From IMG/VR virus record IMGVR_UViG_3300028888_000001: a DNA stretch of 64,000 nucleotides. One strand, written 5' to 3'. This DNA is from a virus. Lineage: Duplodnaviria > Caudoviricetes. Under the pieces are notes generated by a model. It was not told the origin of the DNA. It saw nothing but the letters and a program-made list of their open reading frames with translations, and ran no database searches. The translations under genes were made by a program, and so were the position numbers. Positions 23,434 to 34,260 of the stretch are shown in pieces (within the stretch, counting starts at the first letter, position 1; each line of letters starts with the position of its first letter).

Positions 23434-24450
23434 ATGGATATGAATCAACAGGCTTATTATGGAAACCCCTATCAGCAGCAGCCGTTTGGATTTGGCGGTT
23501 ATTATTATGATCCGTCTAATCCATATTTAAATGGAGGTTTTCAGTCACAGCCAATGTATTTTAACAATCAGCAGATGCCTCAGATGAGCTCTTCTCTTAC
23601 GGATGAAGAGATCCAGAGGCTTAGACAAGAACGTCCTGGAAGCAACGTGCTCAATCTTAGCATTGATCCGAATACTGTGTTGAGGTCTATGTGCAATCAC
23701 CGCGATAAGGGACAGGATGTTGTTCAAATCAAATCAGACGGCTCCGGTGAAGTGTATTGCCCGATCTGTGGTAATTCCTGGAGCATGGAAGAGATGACCA
23801 AAGAAGAACTGCAAGAACTTGTACAGAAATTGATAGCTCAGATGCAGATTGCAAAATGGGCTGGAAATATTCCCAATAATGTATTAAGGGATTATTTCAC
23901 AATTATGCCGCTTCTAGAAAAATTCCCGGATCTCTGGGAGTATTCTATGAAGAACTTTAACAAGATGATGAGTGCGAACGGCATGTATTATGCTACAGAT
24001 GCTATGCCATATGCACAGTATAACGCCATGTTCCCGGGCGGATCAATGGCATACAATGTGACTGCAAATCCGTATCAGCAGGCTTATTATAATCAGCCCA
24101 TGCAGCAGCAGACGGTGCAGTTTAATACTCCTTATCAGCCCAATATGAATATGGGTCAGATGCCAGTAAATGGACAGGCAGCTAATCCGGCTGTAAATCC
24201 GATGCAGGCTCAGGGATTCAATCAACCATTCAATCCTCAGTTCGCAAATCAACAGAACATGATGATGTATAATCAGCAGATGATGCAGCCAAACATGTAT
24301 CAGCAGCCGTATATGAATCAACCCAATGCTGGCCAGACCTATCAGCCGAATTTTGGAGTAGCTCAGCCTCAGCAGCAGGCAGCGCAACAGCAGCCCACTC
24401 AGCAGCAACAGGCAGCTCCGGTAACGACTGAAACAAAGGTAGAGCTTTAA
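23434..24450 (+). CDS. Zn-binding protein with Q/N/M/P/Y-rich low-complexity termini
   Basis: CNH...CPICG; long QQP/NQ/MM repeats; own promoter motif and terminator. Confidence 0.75.
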   Translation: MDMNQQAYYGNPYQQQPFGFGGYYYDPSNPYLNGGFQSQPMYFNNQQMPQMSSSLTDEEIQRLRQERPGSNVLNLSIDPNTVLRSMCNHRDKGQDVVQIKSDGSGEVYCPICGNSWSMEEMTKEELQELVQKLIAQMQIAKWAGNIPNNVLRDYFTIMPLLEKFPDLWEYSMKNFNKMMSANGMYYATDAMPYAQYNAMFPGGSMAYNVTANPYQQAYYNQPMQQQTVQFNTPYQPNMNMGQMPVNGQAANPAVNPMQAQGFNQPFNPQFANQQNMMMYNQQMMQPNMYQQPYMNQPNAGQTYQPNFGVAQPQQQAAQQQPTQQQQAAPVTTETKVEL

Positions 24451-24485
24451 AGAAAATAAGATAACTATATAACAACTAATTAGGG

Positions 24486-24509
24486 GCCCATGGGAGAAGT
24501 CCCATGGGC
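24486..24509 (+). terminator. hairpin terminator
   Basis: GCCCATGGGA-gaag-TCCCATGGGC followed by T-rich sequence. Confidence 0.7.
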
Positions 24510-24585
24510 TTTAAAGTTGTTTTAATTAATTTTTAAACTCATATTTAACCATAGGAGTAAATCTTATTTAGGAGGTTTAAAATGA

Positions 24586-25869
24586 ATGGCTAAAGATGAA
24601 AAAATAAATAAACAAGCAGAAATTAAAGTTATTCAAGATCCAGTAGAAGCTGTTAGAAAACTTCCGGATGTCTACTTGGGGTCCCTGGGTGGACCCGGAT
24701 TCCTTAACATGTACCGAGAAATTGTACAAAACTCATTGGATGAAATTGTCAAAGGCAATACTCTTGACAAAAACATTATCATTAGTTACGATGCTAGAAA
24801 TCATACTGTAATTGTAGAAGATAATGGTCAAGGTATAGATTTAAATATGCTTATACCAGTATTTTCTATATTACATTCTTCAAGCAATTATGACAAAAAA
24901 GAAGGTAGCGGTAACTACAGTAGCGGTAAAAACGGTATGGGTGCTACAATTACAAACTTCTTATCGAAGTTCTTTGTAGTCGAATCATATCGTATGGATG
25001 GCACTGCTGCTAAAGTAGAATTTGAAGAAGGTCGTATAAATTCCAAAGGTTTACAGAAAATAAAGAAACCACCAGTTGGAAAACACGGTCTTATAACTAG
25101 CTTTGCTCCATCTGAAATGATGGGAGATATTGATGTCACAGATATTCAGATAGAAGAACTTACTTGGAAACTGTGTCATTTGTCTTCTATAGGAACAAAA
25201 ATAACTCTAAATATGATTACTCCTACAGGAATGAAGAGAAAATCTATTATAGAGAATAAGCATGGTATCTTTGATATGCTTCCTGGAATATGCGAGAAGC
25301 CATTATTCGATCCTATTTATTACGCGATTGATAATGGCACTATGGCTGTAGAGTGTTTACTTACATACGATCTTAAGAATATGGATGACCCAGAAATTTT
25401 ATCATTTGCTAATATGTGCCCTACCATTTCAGGTACACATGTAGATGGTTTCTTAGACGGATTAATTAAATATTTTAGAGATTATATGAACAAAATCTAT
25501 CTAGCAAATAATAATAAACTTCAAGTCAATGCCCAAGATATACGTACAGGTCTTAGAGCTATAGTTAATATAAAACATCTGTATCCGCTGTTCACAGGTC
25601 AATCGAAAGGTATCTTCTCAAAGGAGGATATCAAACCTTTCATTAATGCTGAGACTACAGAAGCATTAAATGAATGGACTAAGAAAGCTCCTGGAGATTT
25701 ACAGAAAGTAAGCAAATATTTTAAAGATGTTTGTGAAATCAGGATGAAGCAAGATGGCCAAAAGATCAAAATGCAGGGTTCATATATTCAATCAGCTATA
25801 TCTGATTTACCTGCAAAATATAAGAAACCAAATGGTCATAAAGATATAGAGGTAATAATTTGCGAGGGT
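24586..25869 (+). CDS. gyrB: DNA gyrase/topo II subunit B, exon 1 (GHKL ATPase)
   Basis: EIVQNSLDE, DNGQGI, GKNGMG; ends at IICEG, the first half of the EG|DSA motif. Confidence 0.95.
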
Positions 25870-27510
25870 TAAGCGATAGCCCATTCACTATAGTGATATA
25901 GTGTCTAAATCTTTTTGAATTGCTGGAAAAGGCTAAAGCTTTCATGCCTATTATATAGGAGATGAAAATCAGAAACAAGTTGAGAGATGGCTCATGGTGA
26001 AATAAAAGCTCGAAAGAGTCCTAAAAGCTATAAACAATGTCTAATCAGCAGCTAAGTAATTTTATATGCCATTATCTCTTTTAAAGAAATGGAGATAAGT
26101 ATGAATTTAAAGCATGATGTGCAAGTAGGCGATACTTTTAGTACTAATGCATATGGCGAAATTAAAATTTTAGAAGATCTTGGCTTTGAATCTTTTGAAG
26201 ATAGAAGGCATAGATACAAAATACAATTTTTAAAAACTAGCCATATCAGAATTGCTAGAAGGGATGCAATCATAGCCGGAGAGGTAAAAGATCTTGTACC
26301 AGATATTAATTTTGAATTAATTAGAGACTCTTATAAATGCGGAAAGTATCAAATCATAGAATACATGGGGTTAATAAATGCAAGGCAGTATGTAAAAATA
26401 GTATTTTTAGATTCCACTGCAGAATCTATAGTATTACTTTCTACAGCCGAATCAGGAAAAGTGCACGATCCCATGTTTGGGTTTAATCCAAACAAAATAT
26501 TTCAATCAAATAAATCAGGCCCATTTAAGATGATTGATTATTTGGGTAAGGTTAAAGGGCATGCATTTGTAACTATATTATTCTTGAACACAGGAACGAT
26601 TAGAGATGTACAAATGTATAACGCTCTAGATGGAAAAGTATCAGATCCAGCATTAAATAGAAAAATTAGTGACGATTTTTCTATTGACAGATTTGATAAT
26701 TATGAACTTTACTTAAATAAGAAACTTAAAAGCGTACATGATAAAATGATTAAAAGATGTTATAATACTAATATCCCAGAATATCAGTATTATGGCTTGC
26801 TTTGAATTAAAGTATGTGATAGATGGTTAGAGAGTTTTGACAACTTTTTAGAAGATGCAAAACGACTACCTGGTTATGATAAATACTATAATAGACCCTA
26901 TTTATATGAACTTGATAAGGATTACTTGCAATTTAATATTCCTAAAAAGTTAAGAGTTTATTCTCCTACGACTTGTATGTTTTTATATAAACAGGATAAT
27001 ATTAACTTAAAGAGTATTGAATATAAGAGAGAACATAATCCAGGAGCATTATTTGGAGTTTCTATTAATTCAGCTGGAAATTATCAAGCTAGTATAGTAG
27101 TACAAGGAAACTATGTATATCTTGGAGTCTATGATAATATCATAGCAGCTGCAAATATGTTTAATATGGCATTTGATTGGTATCACGACTATGAATTAGT
27201 CGCTTTACATAACGATGTTCCAGTCATGGATTTAAATGAAATAAATAGCCATAGAATAAATGCCAAATAATTATATCATATTACAGAAAAGAATAATGGC
27301 ATATAAAATTAAAAGTTCAACGACTATCCCCTATATGGGACGTGAAATTCGTCTACAGGAGTACGGCTCAAGCGAGTGGGTGAGAATCCCTTAAATGGAA
27401 GTTGAAAGACACCCTAGAAATAGGGTGATGATATAGTCTAAACTTCTAGAGAAATACTAGAGAAGTTCATAAGAGAACTGCAGAGCGTAGCGAACTCTGT
27501 GAATAAACTG
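25870..27510 (+). mobile_element. group I intron 1 of gyrB (with HNH-type ORF)
   Basis: Exon ends in U (GGT), P1 GGGT/GCCC; P AATTGCTGG, Q AATCAGCAG, R TCAACGACTAT, S ATATAGTCT; terminal G; splicing restores CEG-DSA. Confidence 0.92.
26089..27270 (+). pseudogene. intron-encoded HNH-type endonuclease with C-terminal AP2-like domain, one in-frame TGA
   Basis: ORFs 26089..26805 and 26926..27270 share a frame: YYGLL*IKVCDRW...LDKD...YSPTTCMF; the stop falls at the usual Gly of YG..GI.VC..W. Confidence 0.8.
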
Positions 27511-27744
27511 GATTCAGCCGCAGCAGGATTCGAAAATAATAGAGATAAAATGCATCAGGGCATTATGCCCCTCAGAGGTAAAATTCTTAATGCAATTATG
27601 ACACCGCCAAAGAAATTCTTTGAGAATGAAGAGATTAGCGGTCTATTCTCTATATTTGGATATAAAAATTTCTCAAGCAAATTTGATCCAGAAAAGTTCA
27701 AACCATCTAAAATCATCATAGCAACGGACGCTGATGCAGACGGT
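27511..27744 (+). CDS. gyrB: gyrB exon 2 (TOPRIM)
   Basis: DSAAAG...PLRGKILN...IIIATDADADG. Confidence 0.93.
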
Positions 27745-28968
27745 TACCTGAGAGTTACAGTAGCCGCATCATTGTGGTGACACAGTGTTGAATAATTCTT
27801 TCTAATTGCTGGGAAGTGCTAAAGCCTTCTTGCCTATAGGGAGCTGAAAAGCAGAAATAAGTAGAAGGATGATCTATGGTGAAATAAAAGCTAATATACT
27901 TTACTGAACTTTTGTATATTGGTCCTAAGGATCGTTAACAATGTACAATCAGCAGCTAAGTAAAATTTTATAATATTTATTTCATGAGGAGTATAATACA
28001 TGCCAACTAATTGGGTAGGCTATACATTCATGAATATAGAAAATCAACCAGTTACAGTAATAGAAGATTTAGGCTATTCAAGTGCTTCTGGAGAGCATAA
28101 AGTTATAGTCAGATTTGATATTACTGGAAATACTAAAGAAGTATTTGTAAACAACGTAAGAACTGGCAAAGTTAAAGATCCAATGCGCGGTATTAGGCTA
28201 TTTGAATGGCGCCATAGCAATGGATTTGGAGATTTCATGATCATTGAAGATATGGGGATGATACAACAGAATAATCGTCCGATACATATGGTTAAATGCC
28301 AATGGAAGGATACTGGTTCTGTGTCTATATATCGATTTGATCATGCAGTAGAAGGAAGCATTAAAGATTGGTATAAACCGATACTATTTGGCATAGCTTA
28401 TCATGGAGAAGTGGATTGTTTTGAAGAGCCGTGGGCTTATCAAGAATGGAAACATATGCTTCAACGATGCTATGATAAAAATGATACTCATTATTCATCA
28501 TATGGTGGTAAGAACGTTTATGTTGATAATAGATGGTTAAACTATGCTAATTTTGTGAAAGATATAAAGTATTTAGAAAATTATGATAAGAAATTAGCAT
28601 TTCCATCTGAGTTTGAAATTGACAAAGATTTCTTGCAACGTCATGTTCCAGATAATGTACCTAAGGTTTATTCTCCAGAAACTTGTATGTTTATACACAG
28701 AAGTTTAAATAACTATCTTAGGTATAATAGCTCGTCGACACCAATCGATAGACAATATTTAGTACCAATGATTAATTTAGTATAAAAAATAAATATTATA
28801 AAATTTTAAAAGTTCAACGACTATCTCAAAAGAGAGTAGAGCTCAAGCGAGCTCAAAATGGAGAACGCTCCTATAATATAGGGCGGTGATATAGTCTCGG
28901 CTTCTAGGCAACACCTAGAGAAGTTCATAAGAGAACTGCATAGCGTAGCGAACTATGTGAAGGCATCG
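27745..28968 (+). mobile_element. group I intron 2 of gyrB (with HNH-type ORF)
   Basis: P1 CGGT/GCCG; conserved P,Q,R,S; terminal G; splicing restores DADADG-KHI. Confidence 0.92.
28000..28785 (+). CDS. intron-encoded HNH-type homing endonuclease
   Basis: W..MLQRCY, YGG, IDKD, YSPETCMF..N; lies between Q and R (P6 loop), flanked by an inverted repeat. Confidence 0.8.
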   Translation: MPTNWVGYTFMNIENQPVTVIEDLGYSSASGEHKVIVRFDITGNTKEVFVNNVRTGKVKDPMRGIRLFEWRHSNGFGDFMIIEDMGMIQQNNRPIHMVKCQWKDTGSVSIYRFDHAVEGSIKDWYKPILFGIAYHGEVDCFEEPWAYQEWKHMLQRCYDKNDTHYSSYGGKNVYVDNRWLNYANFVKDIKYLENYDKKLAFPSEFEIDKDFLQRHVPDNVPKVYSPETCMFIHRSLNNYLRYNSSSTPIDRQYLVPMINLV

Positions 28969-29034
28969 AAGCACATTCAAAGTCTGTTGCTAATCATGTT
29001 TTTAAAATATCTACCGTTCGTCGTAGAGCAAGGT
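28969..29034 (+). CDS. gyrB: gyrB exon 3 (66 nt, missed by the ORF track)
   Basis: KHIQSLLLIMFLKYLPFVVEQG matches the GyrB HIRTLLL..F...P.....G segment. Confidence 0.92.
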
Positions 29035-29400
29035 TAATTAAAATAGCCTATTCATTATGGTAACATAGTGTCTATTACTCTTTTTAATTGCTGGGAAACG
29101 CTAAGAGCCTCTATGCCTATAAGGAGCGAAAGCAGAAACAAGTTAGAGGATGATCTATGCTGAAATAAAAGCCAATTTAATTGGTGCTAAGGATCGTTAA
29201 CAATGTATAATCAGCATCCAAGCTATACATTAGTATAGAAGGTTCAACGACTATCTCAAAAGAGAGTAGGGCTCAAGCGAGTTCAAAATGGAAGAGCATC
29301 CTATGTAGTATAGGATGAAGATATAGTCTCGACTTCTAGGTAGCACCTAGAGAAGTTCATAAGAGAACTGCATAGCATAGCGAACTATGTGAAGATTTCG
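29035..29400 (+). mobile_element. group I intron 3 of gyrB (ORF-less)
   Basis: P1 AGGT/GCCT; P,Q,R,S present; terminal G; restores EQG-KLFIANPPLY. Confidence 0.92.
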
Positions 29401-29955
29401 AAATTATTTATTGCTAATCCGCCCTTATATGGGCTTAAAATTGGTAAGGATAAATATAAATTCTTTGCCGATAATATAGACTATGTAGATTATGTGAGAA
29501 ATATTTTCTGTAAAGATAATGTCATAGCAAATGATAAGAAAAAAGTATTAAGCAAATCTGAGATTGTAAAAATACTATATAGCAATATTGATTATCTTAA
29601 ATACATGCGTCACGTTTCTGGTATATTTGCTATAGACATAGAATTTCTAGAGTTTTTGCTATACAATAAAGATCTTGCATATAATAAATTTAAAACGACC
29701 GTAGAGAAAGTATATCCATTCGTTAAGGTTACTAAAGAGAATGGCATTACTATGCTTCATGGGTTGGTTGGATCTTTATATCAAACAGTTTTCTTTAACG
29801 ATAGATTGCTGTTTGAGTGTAAACCTATTATAGACTTGATTGAAAGATCTTGTAAATATTATTACATAAACGGAAAACGAACTACATTATATGGCTTAAT
29901 GAACGCATTTAATCAATGTGAGCCTTCAGGAATTAGTAGATATAAAGGACTGGGT
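29401..29955 (+). CDS. gyrB: gyrB exon 4
   Basis: KLFIANPPLY...SRYKGLG. Confidence 0.92.
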
Positions 29956-30373
29956 AAATTTTGCCCATTCATCGTGGTAACACGGTGTCTAAATCTCTTT
30001 TGAATTGCTGGGAAGTGCTAAAGCTCTCATGCCTATAAGGAATCGAAAGATAGAAACAAGTTGAGAGATAGTCTATGGTGAAATAAAAGCTAATACTTTA
30101 GGCAGAAGTATTAGTCCTAAGGATTGCTAGCAATGTACAATCAGCATCCAAGCTATACATTAGTATAGAAGGTTCAACGACTATCCCCTATATGGTGCGT
30201 GAAAATCGTATACAGGAGTACGGCTCAAGCGAGTGGGTGAGAATCCCTTAAATGGAAGTGGAAGAGCAACCTTTACTATCAAAAGGTTGATGATATAGTC
30301 TCGACTTCTAGGTGACACTTAGAGAAGTTCATAAGAGAACTACATAGCGTAGCGAACTATGTGAAGATAATCG
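29956..30373 (+). mobile_element. group I intron 4 of gyrB (ORF-less)
   Basis: P1 TGGGT/GCCCA; P,Q,R,S present; terminal G; restores RYKGLG-EM. Confidence 0.92.
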
Positions 30374-30547
30374 GAAATGCCGCCTAAGTTATTAGGAGAA
30401 TCTACTATATTACCTGGGATTGGAAGGACGCTAAAGCAATATAATATAGAAGACGTAAAGAAAGAACTTAAATATATTACATCTCTTCAATCTGATAAAG
30501 GTGCTTTTATCCAAGGTATAAAAGTTAGAAGAGAAGACATAGTATAA
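30374..30547 (+). CDS. gyrB: gyrB exon 5 (missed by the ORF track)
   Basis: EMPPKLLGESTILP...REDIV*; spliced product 770 aa. Confidence 0.9.
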   Translation, partial: EMPPKLLGESTILPGIGRTLKQYNIEDVKKELKYITSLQSDKGAFIQGIKVRREDIV

Positions 30548-30559
30548 TATAACAAAAAA

Positions 30560-30587
30560 TGCCAGTAGGGATTTCTCCCTACTGGCA
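30560..30587. terminator. bidirectional terminator
   Basis: TGCCAGTAGGGA-tttc-TCCCTACTGGCA between convergent genes. Confidence 0.75.
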
Positions 30588-30604
30588 CTTACCGATTTTA
30601 TTTT

Positions 30605-31905: not shown

Positions 31906-34260
31906 ATGAAAGATAATATAATTCCAGTAGATGTACGAAAACAATATATGTCAGATATGGCACGATATTCGCTTTATGTGCTATTTGATCGTTATATTTG
32001 TGATATTAGAGACGGACTAAAACCAGTACAAAGAAGAATCTTATATTGTATGTGGGAGGATGTTAAAGCAGTTTCCGAAGCCACAAAAAGAAAATCTGCA
32101 AACACTACAGGTATGGTTATCGGTGCTTATCATCCACATAGTGCAGATGCTGTATATGGAGCTATGCAAGTAATGACTAACCACTGGGAAACAAAAGTTC
32201 CATTACTTGTTTATGCATCATCATCTGGATCTATACAGGGTGGTCCTCAAGCTGCAAGTAGATATACAGAATCATATTTATCTCAGTTTGCATTAGATGT
32301 AATTTTTGGAGATCTTATAGAGAGTCGAATGTCAGTAGACTGGGCTAAGACATTTGATAATCATACTACAGAGCCAGAGTTCTTACCAGTGAAAGTACCG
32401 CTGCTTTTAGTGAATGGTTGCTTTTCAGTTGTTATTGGTAGAAAAATTGAGGTGCCAAAGCATAGCTTAAATGACGTTATAGACGCTACATTAGCAGTAC
32501 TTCGAGATCCAAAAGCTAAAGTTATACTGATTCCTGATCCATGCCAAAAGTGCGAAGTGATTGACACTGATTGGAAGAAAATTTCTAATATGGGATTTGG
32601 ATATTATACTCAGAGAGGTATAATAAAAATCACTCAAGATGATAGAGGTATTTATATAGTACATCTATTATCAATGCCAGATTTAATTACCGCAAACTCT
32701 GTAGTTGATAAAATCCAATCTCTCATTAAAGAAAATAAATTACCACAAATTGCAGATATACAGGATCATTCATCTGCAGACGAATTGGATATATGGTTAG
32801 TCTTAAAGAAAGGCTCAGATCCAGAGTATGTAAAACAAGTTCTTTATAAGCAGACAAGTATCCAAGACACAAAACGAGTAAATATGGAGGTCATCGATGA
32901 AAATGAAATAAAGAGAGTTAGCTATAAAGCATATATAGCCTATTTTATTGAAAATAGAAAGATGGTAAAATTTAGAATATATAATGCTAGGCTACAGAAA
33001 GTAGAAACTCGCTTACATACTATAGAGACCTTTATTGCTATACTCGAAAGTGGTGATGTAGAAAAAATTATTCACGCTATAAGAAATCAAAAGCCGTCAG
33101 AGGAAGCTCAGCTTATAGATTGGCTTATGAAACGTTTGAAAATCACAGATCTTCAAGCTAAGTTTGTACTTAATACAGAGATCAAGAAACTCTCTAAAGG
33201 AAGCTTGAATAAATATAAAGAAGAGAGAAAAAATCTATTAGCTTTGAGAGAGCAATATATAAAGATGATTACGATCCCAGAGCTTATAAATAAAGAAATT
33301 GAAGATGAGCTTCTAGCCATCAAAGCTAAATATGGCAAACCTAGAAAGTCTATCGTAATTTCAGAAGCAGAGGCTTCAAATATTCCTCAGGGCACATTCA
33401 AGATAGTTGTTTATGAATCTGGTTATCTAAAGAAAATGGAAATTCAAGCACCTATCAAATCTTATAAAGGTGACAATCCAAAATGTATCACTGTAGGTGA
33501 TAACGATAAAGATCTACTGTTATTTGACGAAATGGGTAAAGTATTTAGATTACCAATACATAAAATCCCATTTACAGATAAAAATTCTCCGGGCGTAGAT
33601 ATTAGAATGATATTAAAGAAGCTTACAAGTAATATAACTTCAATTATATATCATCCAATACTAGAAACTCTTGCTAATAAGAAGTCTAAATACTTTATTA
33701 TCTCTATAACAAGATCTGGGCTTATAAAGAGAATGGACTTAGATGATATATTAAACGCTACTCCATCTGGTATTGTATATTCTAAGCTTAATAAAGATGA
33801 TTTTGTTAAAGACATCGTGGTTGCTAATATAAAATCAGATATTGTAATATATACGAAATCTAAAGCTCTTAGAATACCAATAGAAAATATACCTTACTTA
33901 AAGAGGTCTACTCTAGGCGCAGCATCTATGCGTGGGAATGATCCTATAGAGGGTATTAGCGTCATAACCTCAGATACTAAAGACGTTGTTATAGTAACCA
34001 CCAAAGGCAGATTTAATAGAATAATCCAATCTGCGCTTGAGCGTTCTCAACGTGGTAAAGGTGGATCTAGAGTAATTAAATTAGCTAAAGGTGATAATAT
34101 AATCAATGTGTTTACTTGTAGCCACGATACGTTAATTAGATGCGTACATATGGATGGTACAGTAACAGAAATTCAATCTTCTGCAGTAGCATTAGGATCA
34201 TCAGTATCTCAAGGGGAAAAACTTACTAAAGAAATAATTAAAGCAGAAGTCATATCATAA
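31906..34260 (+). CDS. gyrA: DNA gyrase/topo II subunit A
   Basis: DGLKPVQRRILY, YHPH, AASRYTE catalytic Tyr, C-terminal pinwheel repeats. Confidence 0.95.
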   Translation: MKDNIIPVDVRKQYMSDMARYSLYVLFDRYICDIRDGLKPVQRRILYCMWEDVKAVSEATKRKSANTTGMVIGAYHPHSADAVYGAMQVMTNHWETKVPLLVYASSSGSIQGGPQAASRYTESYLSQFALDVIFGDLIESRMSVDWAKTFDNHTTEPEFLPVKVPLLLVNGCFSVVIGRKIEVPKHSLNDVIDATLAVLRDPKAKVILIPDPCQKCEVIDTDWKKISNMGFGYYTQRGIIKITQDDRGIYIVHLLSMPDLITANSVVDKIQSLIKENKLPQIADIQDHSSADELDIWLVLKKGSDPEYVKQVLYKQTSIQDTKRVNMEVIDENEIKRVSYKAYIAYFIENRKMVKFRIYNARLQKVETRLHTIETFIAILESGDVEKIIHAIRNQKPSEEAQLIDWLMKRLKITDLQAKFVLNTEIKKLSKGSLNKYKEERKNLLALREQYIKMITIPELINKEIEDELLAIKAKYGKPRKSIVISEAEASNIPQGTFKIVVYESGYLKKMEIQAPIKSYKGDNPKCITVGDNDKDLLLFDEMGKVFRLPIHKIPFTDKNSPGVDIRMILKKLTSNITSIIYHPILETLANKKSKYFIISITRSGLIKRMDLDDILNATPSGIVYSKLNKDDFVKDIVVANIKSDIVIYTKSKALRIPIENIPYLKRSTLGAASMRGNDPIEGISVITSDTKDVVIVTTKGRFNRIIQSALERSQRGKGGSRVIKLAKGDNIINVFTCSHDTLIRCVHMDGTVTEIQSSAVALGSSVSQGEKLTKEIIKAEVIS

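Follow-up and report, generated by a model that had tools for sequence, protein, structure and literature searches.

The DNA considered here (the window) is a stretch of 64,000 nt, corresponding to the minus strand of bases 137541-201540 of a 313,331-bp IMG/VR record (IMGVR_UViG_3300028888_000001); the record is the complete genome, with direct terminal repeats, of an uncultured gut/rumen jumbo phage. The window carries a gyrB gene which very probably consists of five exons cut by four related, mobile group I introns that would splice themselves out of the transcript. An earlier note on this DNA had proposed five exons and four group I introns, and this is borne out by recomputed borders, matches to the Rfam group I model (RF00028), homology, and covariation in the P1, P2, and P9.2 stems.

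The exons, the introns, and the genes within the introns all lie on the + strand of the window. Exon 1 (24586..25869; 428 aa, ending in ICEG), with an AGGAGG 10 nt 5′ of its ATG, encodes the ATPase and transducer domains; it matches the Pfam families DNA_gyraseB (6.4e-23) and HATPase_c_3, and is 70% identical to an intron-less homolog in another locus (L008). Exon 2 (27511..27744; 78 aa, from DSAAAG to DADADG) makes up part of the Toprim domain (Pfam Toprim, 5.6e-5), and aligns to its homologs without gaps. Exon 3 (28969..29034), the 66-nt exon already picked out in the earlier note, encodes the 22 aa KHIQSLLLIMFLKYLPFVVEQG and is likewise gapless relative to uninterrupted homologs; in three related loci (L128, L129, and L131) it is joined directly to exon 4 (29401..29955; 185 aa, from KLFIANPPLYG to RYKGLG). 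Exon 5 (30374..30547) supplies 57 aa and the stop; in the homologs, the Pfam DNA_gyraseB_C domain spans the exon 4/5 junction.

Each exon, with its borders recomputed, has a length divisible by three, and when joined they encode 770 aa with a single terminal stop. The junctions fall at nt 1284, 1518, 1584, and 2139 of the coding sequence (CDS), a span of 855 nt, each of them after a GGT: site 1 (EG|DSA) in the Toprim catalytic-Glu motif, site 2 (DADG|KHI) at the end of the DxDxDG metal motif, site 3 (EQG|KLF) 22 residues past site 2, and site 4 (KGLG|EM) in the KGLGEM motif of the GyrB C-terminal domain. GyrB homologs were found in 11 related IMG/VR loci, with 42-70% identity over exon 1, and in nine of these the gene is uninterrupted. 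Aligned with six uninterrupted homologs (41-65% identity), the joined protein has zero gaps at all four junctions. The uninterrupted homologs match all of the GyrB domains in Pfam, with Toprim and DNA_gyraseB_C crossing the junction positions, and the motifs EGDSA, DxDxDG, PPLYG, and KGLGEM are restored in the joined protein. The insertion points after Gly codons (GGT) given in the earlier note were thus recovered on recomputation, and the 770-aa GyrB it had predicted is confirmed in silico by the intron-less homologs. By its domains and motifs the joined protein is a GyrB/ParE-type topoisomerase B subunit, a class within which sequence alone does not separate gyrase, topoisomerase IV, and T4-type topoisomerase II.

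A homolog search of the whole genome found this single gyrB locus. The gyrA gene (31906-34260), 1.4 kb downstream, is free of introns, as the earlier note had it: it is one unbroken open reading frame (ORF) of 784 aa, with matches to DNA_topoisoIV and DNA_gyraseA_C. Reading of unspliced gyrB RNA would run into an in-frame UAA directly at the start of introns 1 and 3, and into a stop within 12-16 codons of introns 2 and 4. Such stops bear on one alternative, in which the pieces would be separately translated subunits of a split gene (as are T4 genes 39 and 60), or the inserts would be inteins. Phage gyrB genes interrupted in a similar way do appear in public records as a pair of CDS; however, exons 2-5 have no properly placed start codon or ribosome-binding site, one of them is only 22 codons long, and the inserts both contain in-frame stops and match group I structure, so that this alternative deserves next to no credence.

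Group I structure of the intervening sequences

Introns 3 (29035-29400; 366 nt, at EQG|KLF, beginning UAA and ending UUCG) and 4 (29956-30373; 418 nt, at KGLG|EM, ending AAUCG) are ORF-less, and score 52.4 and 55.1 bits with RF00028, over its gathering score of 50 bits. Intron 1 (25870-27510; 1641 nt, at EG|DSA, beginning UAA and ending CUG) gives 37.2 bits (E 8e-7) over its 3′ part (27197-27462), and intron 2 (27745-28968; 1224 nt, at DADADG|KHI, ending AUCG) gives no match. The check with group I covariance models suggested in the earlier note therefore comes out in favor of introns 3 and 4, but falls short for the other two. Intron 1 shares 73-86% identity with introns 3 and 4 in its 5′ and 3′ halves, and relative to intron 3 the 5′ half of intron 2 is 74% and its 3′ half 88-94% identical; introns 1 and 2 were assigned to group I because of this 73-94% identity of their halves to introns 3 and 4. 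In P6, intron 2 accommodates an ORF insert of about 0.8 kb, the inserts of introns 1 and 2 being 0.8-1.2 kb long. Each ORF loop is closed by a perfect inverted repeat, of 19 bp in intron 1 (an extended P6; arms 26057..26075 and 27293-27311) and of 22 bp in intron 2 (27961-27982 with 28787-28808); in the alignment, the 19-bp repeat has the position of the P6 hairpin of the ORF-less introns.

With the ORFs set aside, the four introns align across their entire cores. In P1, exon and guide pair as GGGU/GCCC in intron 1, CGGU/GCCG in intron 2, AGGU/GCCU in intron 3, and UGGGU/GCCCA in intron 4, with the cut-site U opposite a G in all four cases and the base at -4 covarying with the guide. P2, a stem of 7 bp capped by a GNRA loop, is paired at 7 of 7 positions with compensatory changes; in an eight-sequence alignment, compensatory changes are found in both P2 and P8. 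All four introns terminate in G (omega-G), as CUG, UCG, UCG, and UCG. In 72 non-redundant sequences of the family, pairing in P9.2 reaches 100%, and each pair shows 13-15 double changes. Covariation over P9, P9.1, and P9.2 scores 0.259, vs. 0.115 for shuffled alignments, of which none in 500 reaches the real score; the percentage paired also beats all 500, and 88.9% of cells are paired, vs. 32-50% in controls with the partner strand slid. P3, P4, P6, and P7 were judged solely from the Rfam alignment. The minimum free energy fold of intron 3 yields P1, P2, P8, P9, and P9.2 (z = -2.5). Judged by these features, the four inserts all belong to a single family of group I introns. The insert of 35-95 nt between P7 and P3′ (in a long form in introns 1 and 4, and a short form in introns 2 and 3), together with the presence of P9.1 and P9.2 hairpins, suggests subgroup IA (compare IA2, the T4 td/Twort type, with its extra P7.1/P7.2), on the strength of resemblance and of blastn matches to Staphylococcus, Brochothrix, and AR9/PBS1 phage introns.

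The preference for GGU can be traced to the guides. The CDS has 34 GGT among its 694 T, and if any U were usable, the probability of finding four of four introns after GGT by chance would be about 6e-6; that all four follow GGU is explained by the GCC core which their guides share, and Gly-GGU codons are also common in conserved motifs. A family-wide rule of insertion after GGU was rejected, as two family members elsewhere in the genome follow GAU, with guides GUCC and GUCG. The earlier note had drawn attention to the insertions all being in phase 0. This is true of every junction, but since 29 of the 34 GGT are in frame (given GGT, p ~0.53 for four in phase 0), it is a by-product of the GGU preference, not an independent observation, and was rejected as a meaningful feature.

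The shared phase invites another explanation, that tandem introns are kept for regulated alternative splicing, with exon skipping giving isoforms that lack exons 2, 3, or 4, or for a splicing-dependent timer. Introns 2, 3, and 4 share 92% identity at their 3′ ends and have guides one base apart, so that cross-reactions between neighbors are conceivable. The phase, however, follows from the GGU preference; the exons that would be skipped hold the Toprim DxDxDG and PPLYG motifs, so that the isoforms would lose catalytic parts; and relatives (below) manage with none or one such intron, which argues against a built-in role. A regulatory function of this kind seems highly improbable.

Endonuclease genes and site occupancy

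The gene in intron 1 (26089..27270) is broken by an in-frame TGA (26803-26805). Its likely start is the ATG at 26101, behind a GGAG, and its product combines three beta-barrel repeats with a DKD...YSPxTC domain and an AP2-like tail; it falls in PHROG 2081/953/374, annotated “HNH endonuclease.” When read through the TGA, it matches, at 66% identity over 388 aa, an intact ORF of 415 aa that the site-1 intron of L131 carries and that has Gly at this position. Recoding of the TGA was rejected: the genome uses the standard code, TGA ends 30 of its 158 long ORFs, there is no suppressor tRNA, and the ortholog has Gly. Because TGA is a stop here, with no suppressor tRNA and Gly in the ortholog, the gene is read as inactivated by one recent nonsense mutation. 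The tail (27100-27190), which is absent from the intron-2 ORF, was recognized as AP2-like by eye, and has a weak match to plant WRI1 (E 0.076).

The gene in intron 2 (28000..28785), with a GAGGAG ribosome-binding site, is intact. It encodes 261 aa, comprising two SH3/Tudor-like barrels and a DKD...YSPETC domain, and matches PHROG 2081 (1.9e-33); its identity to the intron-1 ORF is 32%. A structure model (pLDDT 87.7) shows the two SH3/Tudor-like barrels followed by a C-terminal domain, and in a Foldseek search the N-terminal barrels match only Tudor/SH3-like folds. A Protein Data Bank sequence search with the endonuclease ORFs gave nothing useful. No relatives of the intron-2 endonuclease were found in a search of viral contigs, but a metagenome scan succeeded. 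Four homologs of 261-265 aa are known (65-71% identity), at least two of them in site-2 introns; the orthologs at site 2 show 67-71% identity. Both intron ORFs are considered putative endonucleases, filed as HNH by PHROGs and with a predicted nuclease activity. Introns 3 and 4 have no ORF.

The window has an intron at all four sites; in its relatives, the sites are occupied singly or not at all. L131 (69% GyrB identity) has an intron at site 1, homologous to intron 1, and sites 2 and 3 are empty, the contig ending before site 4. In L128 (53-73%) and L129 (82%), both of whose contigs start after site 1, site 2 has an intron homologous to intron 2, with its endonuclease gene, and site 3 is empty; site 4 is empty in L129, and the L128 contig ends before it. 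L011/L012 (62%) is empty at sites 1, 2, and 3 and has an intron homologous to intron 4 at site 4. Nine other loci (40-65%) are empty at sites 1-4. Site 3 is thus occupied in the window only, and empty in every relative examined. The endonuclease lineage is tied to the site, the intron-1 type being found at EG|DSA in L131 and the intron-2 type at DADADG| in L128 and L129. On these alignments each site is polymorphic, occupied or empty independently of the others, and the introns are mobile.

Some observations weigh against an interpretation in terms of four mobile, self-splicing introns. Rfam misses intron 2 and scores intron 1 below threshold, and the competence of both rests on their homology to introns 3 and 4. 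Inspection by eye found no convincing P10 pairing. The endonuclease ORFs have no Pfam match; the best match of the C-terminal domain in the modeled structure, to PacI, is weak (Z 4.4, rmsd 3.4 over 100 residues); and the invariant residues are D208-K209-D210, Y224, S225, C229, and N237, with no invariant His.

One could suppose instead that at least one of the introns is defective in splicing, and that gyrB is a decaying pseudogene or, as intron 1 opens with an in-frame UAA, gives mainly the 428-aa product of exon 1, with the ATPase and transducer domains. An intron-1 endonuclease gene that is already broken, and the failure of introns 1 and 2 to reach the Rfam threshold, would be in keeping with this. 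Yet all of the exons are open, are 58-82% identical to intact homologs, and retain every catalytic motif; this is the sole gyrB of a complete genome and lies beside an intact gyrA; and each of the four introns has every core segment that is invariant across the 72 family members. A loss of splicing is therefore very unlikely.

The intron family and the surrounding genome

The introns in gyrB belong to a very widespread phage intron family. A 20-nt stretch in P9.1, GAAGTTCATAAGAGAACTGC (29345-29364), has more than 106 exact matches in IMG/VR (loci L019-L124), in very different phages. It comprises the P9.1 hairpin and the start of P9.2, and is near-invariant close to the 3′ end of all four introns, intron 4 having one change. 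Among the matches listed, 25 of 112 have a 5′ half recognizable by a profile made from these introns; because of this, the 3′ module seems to be shared among different cores, and better conserved than the catalytic core itself. In blastn searches, intron 3 matches introns of Brochothrix phage A9, Staphylococcus K/Twort-like and jumbo phages, and AR9/PBS1, with further matches in PhiPA3, Tuc2009, Lak, and Vibrio phages. The genome itself has at least four more copies of the gyrB-intron family, plus further RF00028 matches, for a total of at least 9-10 introns.

The four introns do not group in the same way along their length. From P7 to P7.x, introns 1 and 4 are 94% identical, as are introns 2 and 3, vs. 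about 43% across pairs; in P9, introns 2, 3, and 4 cluster (82-86%) apart from intron 1; and in P1-P2, intron 4 is nearest (91%) to a copy in another gene. Intron 3, too, has its best full-length match in the genome outside gyrB, in a copy that is 81% identical over 331 nt. With this match and with segment trees that conflict, the idea that one intron was duplicated purely locally is unsupported, and the cluster goes beyond simple local duplication. On these comparisons the gyrB introns are mosaics formed by module exchange, for which recombination among family members is needed. In L129, the site-2 intron (L129:1080-1146) has a 3′ tail unlike the conserved P9.1/P9.2 module, although its endonuclease lineage is that of intron 2; this may be taken as another sign of module swapping.

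Two introns of the same family are found about 470 nt apart in another gene of this genome (G000:C1:113602-114901; L003:1520-2810, + strand). The exon between them has a weak match to Terminase_6N (E 0.002, below the cut-off), and the gene may be terL. At G000:C1:301627-303498 there are two sub-threshold RF00028 matches on the same strand, 1.5 kb apart, which may be the halves of another ORF-carrying intron.

Within the window, a terminator-like 15-bp hairpin (30557..30590) lies between gyrB and the convergent downstream gene, and a matching hairpin (24483-24512), also terminator-like, lies upstream of gyrB, separating it from the gene for a 338-aa protein (23434-24450). This protein, encoded directly upstream of gyrB, has a very high content of Q, N, M, P, and Y, and a cluster of Cys at its center. 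A scan for sigma-70 promoters gave no more sites than expected by chance.

A proposed history, and comparison with known systems

The account proposed here is that the gyrB of this jumbo phage was invaded, at four sites in conserved motifs, by one widespread family of group I (IA-like) introns. Most likely, each intron would remove itself from the precursor transcript in the two guanosine-initiated steps that are standard for group I, with the 5′ cut after the exon U paired with G in P1 and the 3′ cut after the terminal G, yielding the 770-aa protein; we infer splicing from the group I anatomy and the restoration of the protein at the junctions, both directly visible. In introns 1 and 2, P6 houses a gene for a predicted site-specific endonuclease. 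Introns 3 and 4 would probably have spread by co-conversion with a neighbor, in trans, or not at all, and recombination has moved modules between the introns.

Essential phage genes that contain several related group I introns, separated by short exons and only in part equipped with endonuclease genes, have been described before. Orf142 of Staphylococcus phage Twort has three group I introns (Landthaler and Shub 1999, PMC22036, as cited in PMC11878797), and the DNA polymerase and terL genes of Bastillevirinae have up to three (PMC11878797); introns of Staphylococcus phages match intron 3 at 73-74% identity along some 150 nt. Unlike these cases, there are four introns here, in gyrB, and in an uncultured 313-kb gut/rumen jumbo phage known from sequence alone. 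Among uncultured gut phages, the capsid gene of a crAss-like Zeta-group phage consists of five fragments (PMC7886860), and the genomes of Jug jumbo phages contain on average 18.5 group I introns, whose splicing has been confirmed in metatranscriptomes (PMC12880540). As in the present genome, these have many introns and fragmented core replication or structural genes; they differ in lineage and host gene, and here the code is standard and relatives permit presence or absence to be mapped site by site. The “very high density” over some 860 nt remarked on in the earlier note holds in that four introns lie within 855 nt, but in the light of these phages it is not unprecedented (PMC7886860, PMC12880540).

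Among the papers searched, none describes group I introns in a phage gyrB. There are, however, interrupted gyrB genes in public records. That of Yersinia phage phiR1-37 (L126, AJ972879.2; g311/g314) is split exactly at EG|DSA (site 1), after GGT, and its insert carries g313, labeled as an HNH endonuclease in the RefSeq record. That of Bacillus phage vB_BspM_Internexus (L125, MW749003.1; 200/201) is split exactly at DADDDG| (site 2), after GGT, and that of Staphylococcus phage PB50 (L127, OR770614.1) two codons before site 2, within DAD|DDG. Each has a single, shorter insert of another lineage, as compared with four here. A common origin with the phiR1-37 and Internexus introns was rejected: the introns are unrelated, and so are the endonucleases of phiR1-37 and intron 1, and the same conserved motifs have therefore been targeted independently. 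In all three records gyrB is given as two CDS, and the gaps look like group I introns, unannotated as such.

A further comparison is with PhiPA3 gp210, an endonuclease in an intron of a jumbo-phage RNA polymerase gene, with a role in competition between co-infecting phages (PMC11620839). As here, the endonuclease is annotated as HNH and encoded within a group I intron, and the gene so interrupted is an essential one of a jumbo phage; a PhiPA3 sequence also matches the 3′ part of intron 3, at 73% identity along some 160 nt. The competitive role has been shown for gp210; for the gyrB introns it is conjecture. It is conceivable, but unlikely, that the gyrB cluster is a multi-site “arsenal” against co-infecting relatives, or that exon skipping among near-identical neighbors gives functional GyrB isoforms. 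If there were such an arsenal, the endonucleases would cut the intron-less gyrB of co-infecting relatives, as gp210 does with the RNA polymerase gene; introns 3 and 4, having no ORF, would be carried with them through co-conversion, intron 3 being only 66 nt from intron 2; and all four introns would be driven as one block through the phage population, conferring a competitive edge.

Although its introns are densely packed, this gyrB is an ordinary case of something already known, and no new kind of system; it leaves knowledge of group I introns unchanged. New here are the site-by-site polymorphism, the fresh break of the intron-1 endonuclease gene, the module exchange, and the occurrence of unrelated introns at sites 1 and 2 in phiR1-37 and Internexus. 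Intron-aware annotation would correct the public phage gyrB records that are given as two genes. Intact, freshly broken, and absent endonuclease genes adjoin one another in this one gene, representing three stages of the endonuclease life cycle, and with its four sites, its endonuclease stages, and its exchanged modules it offers a natural series for how mobile introns pile up in a single gene.

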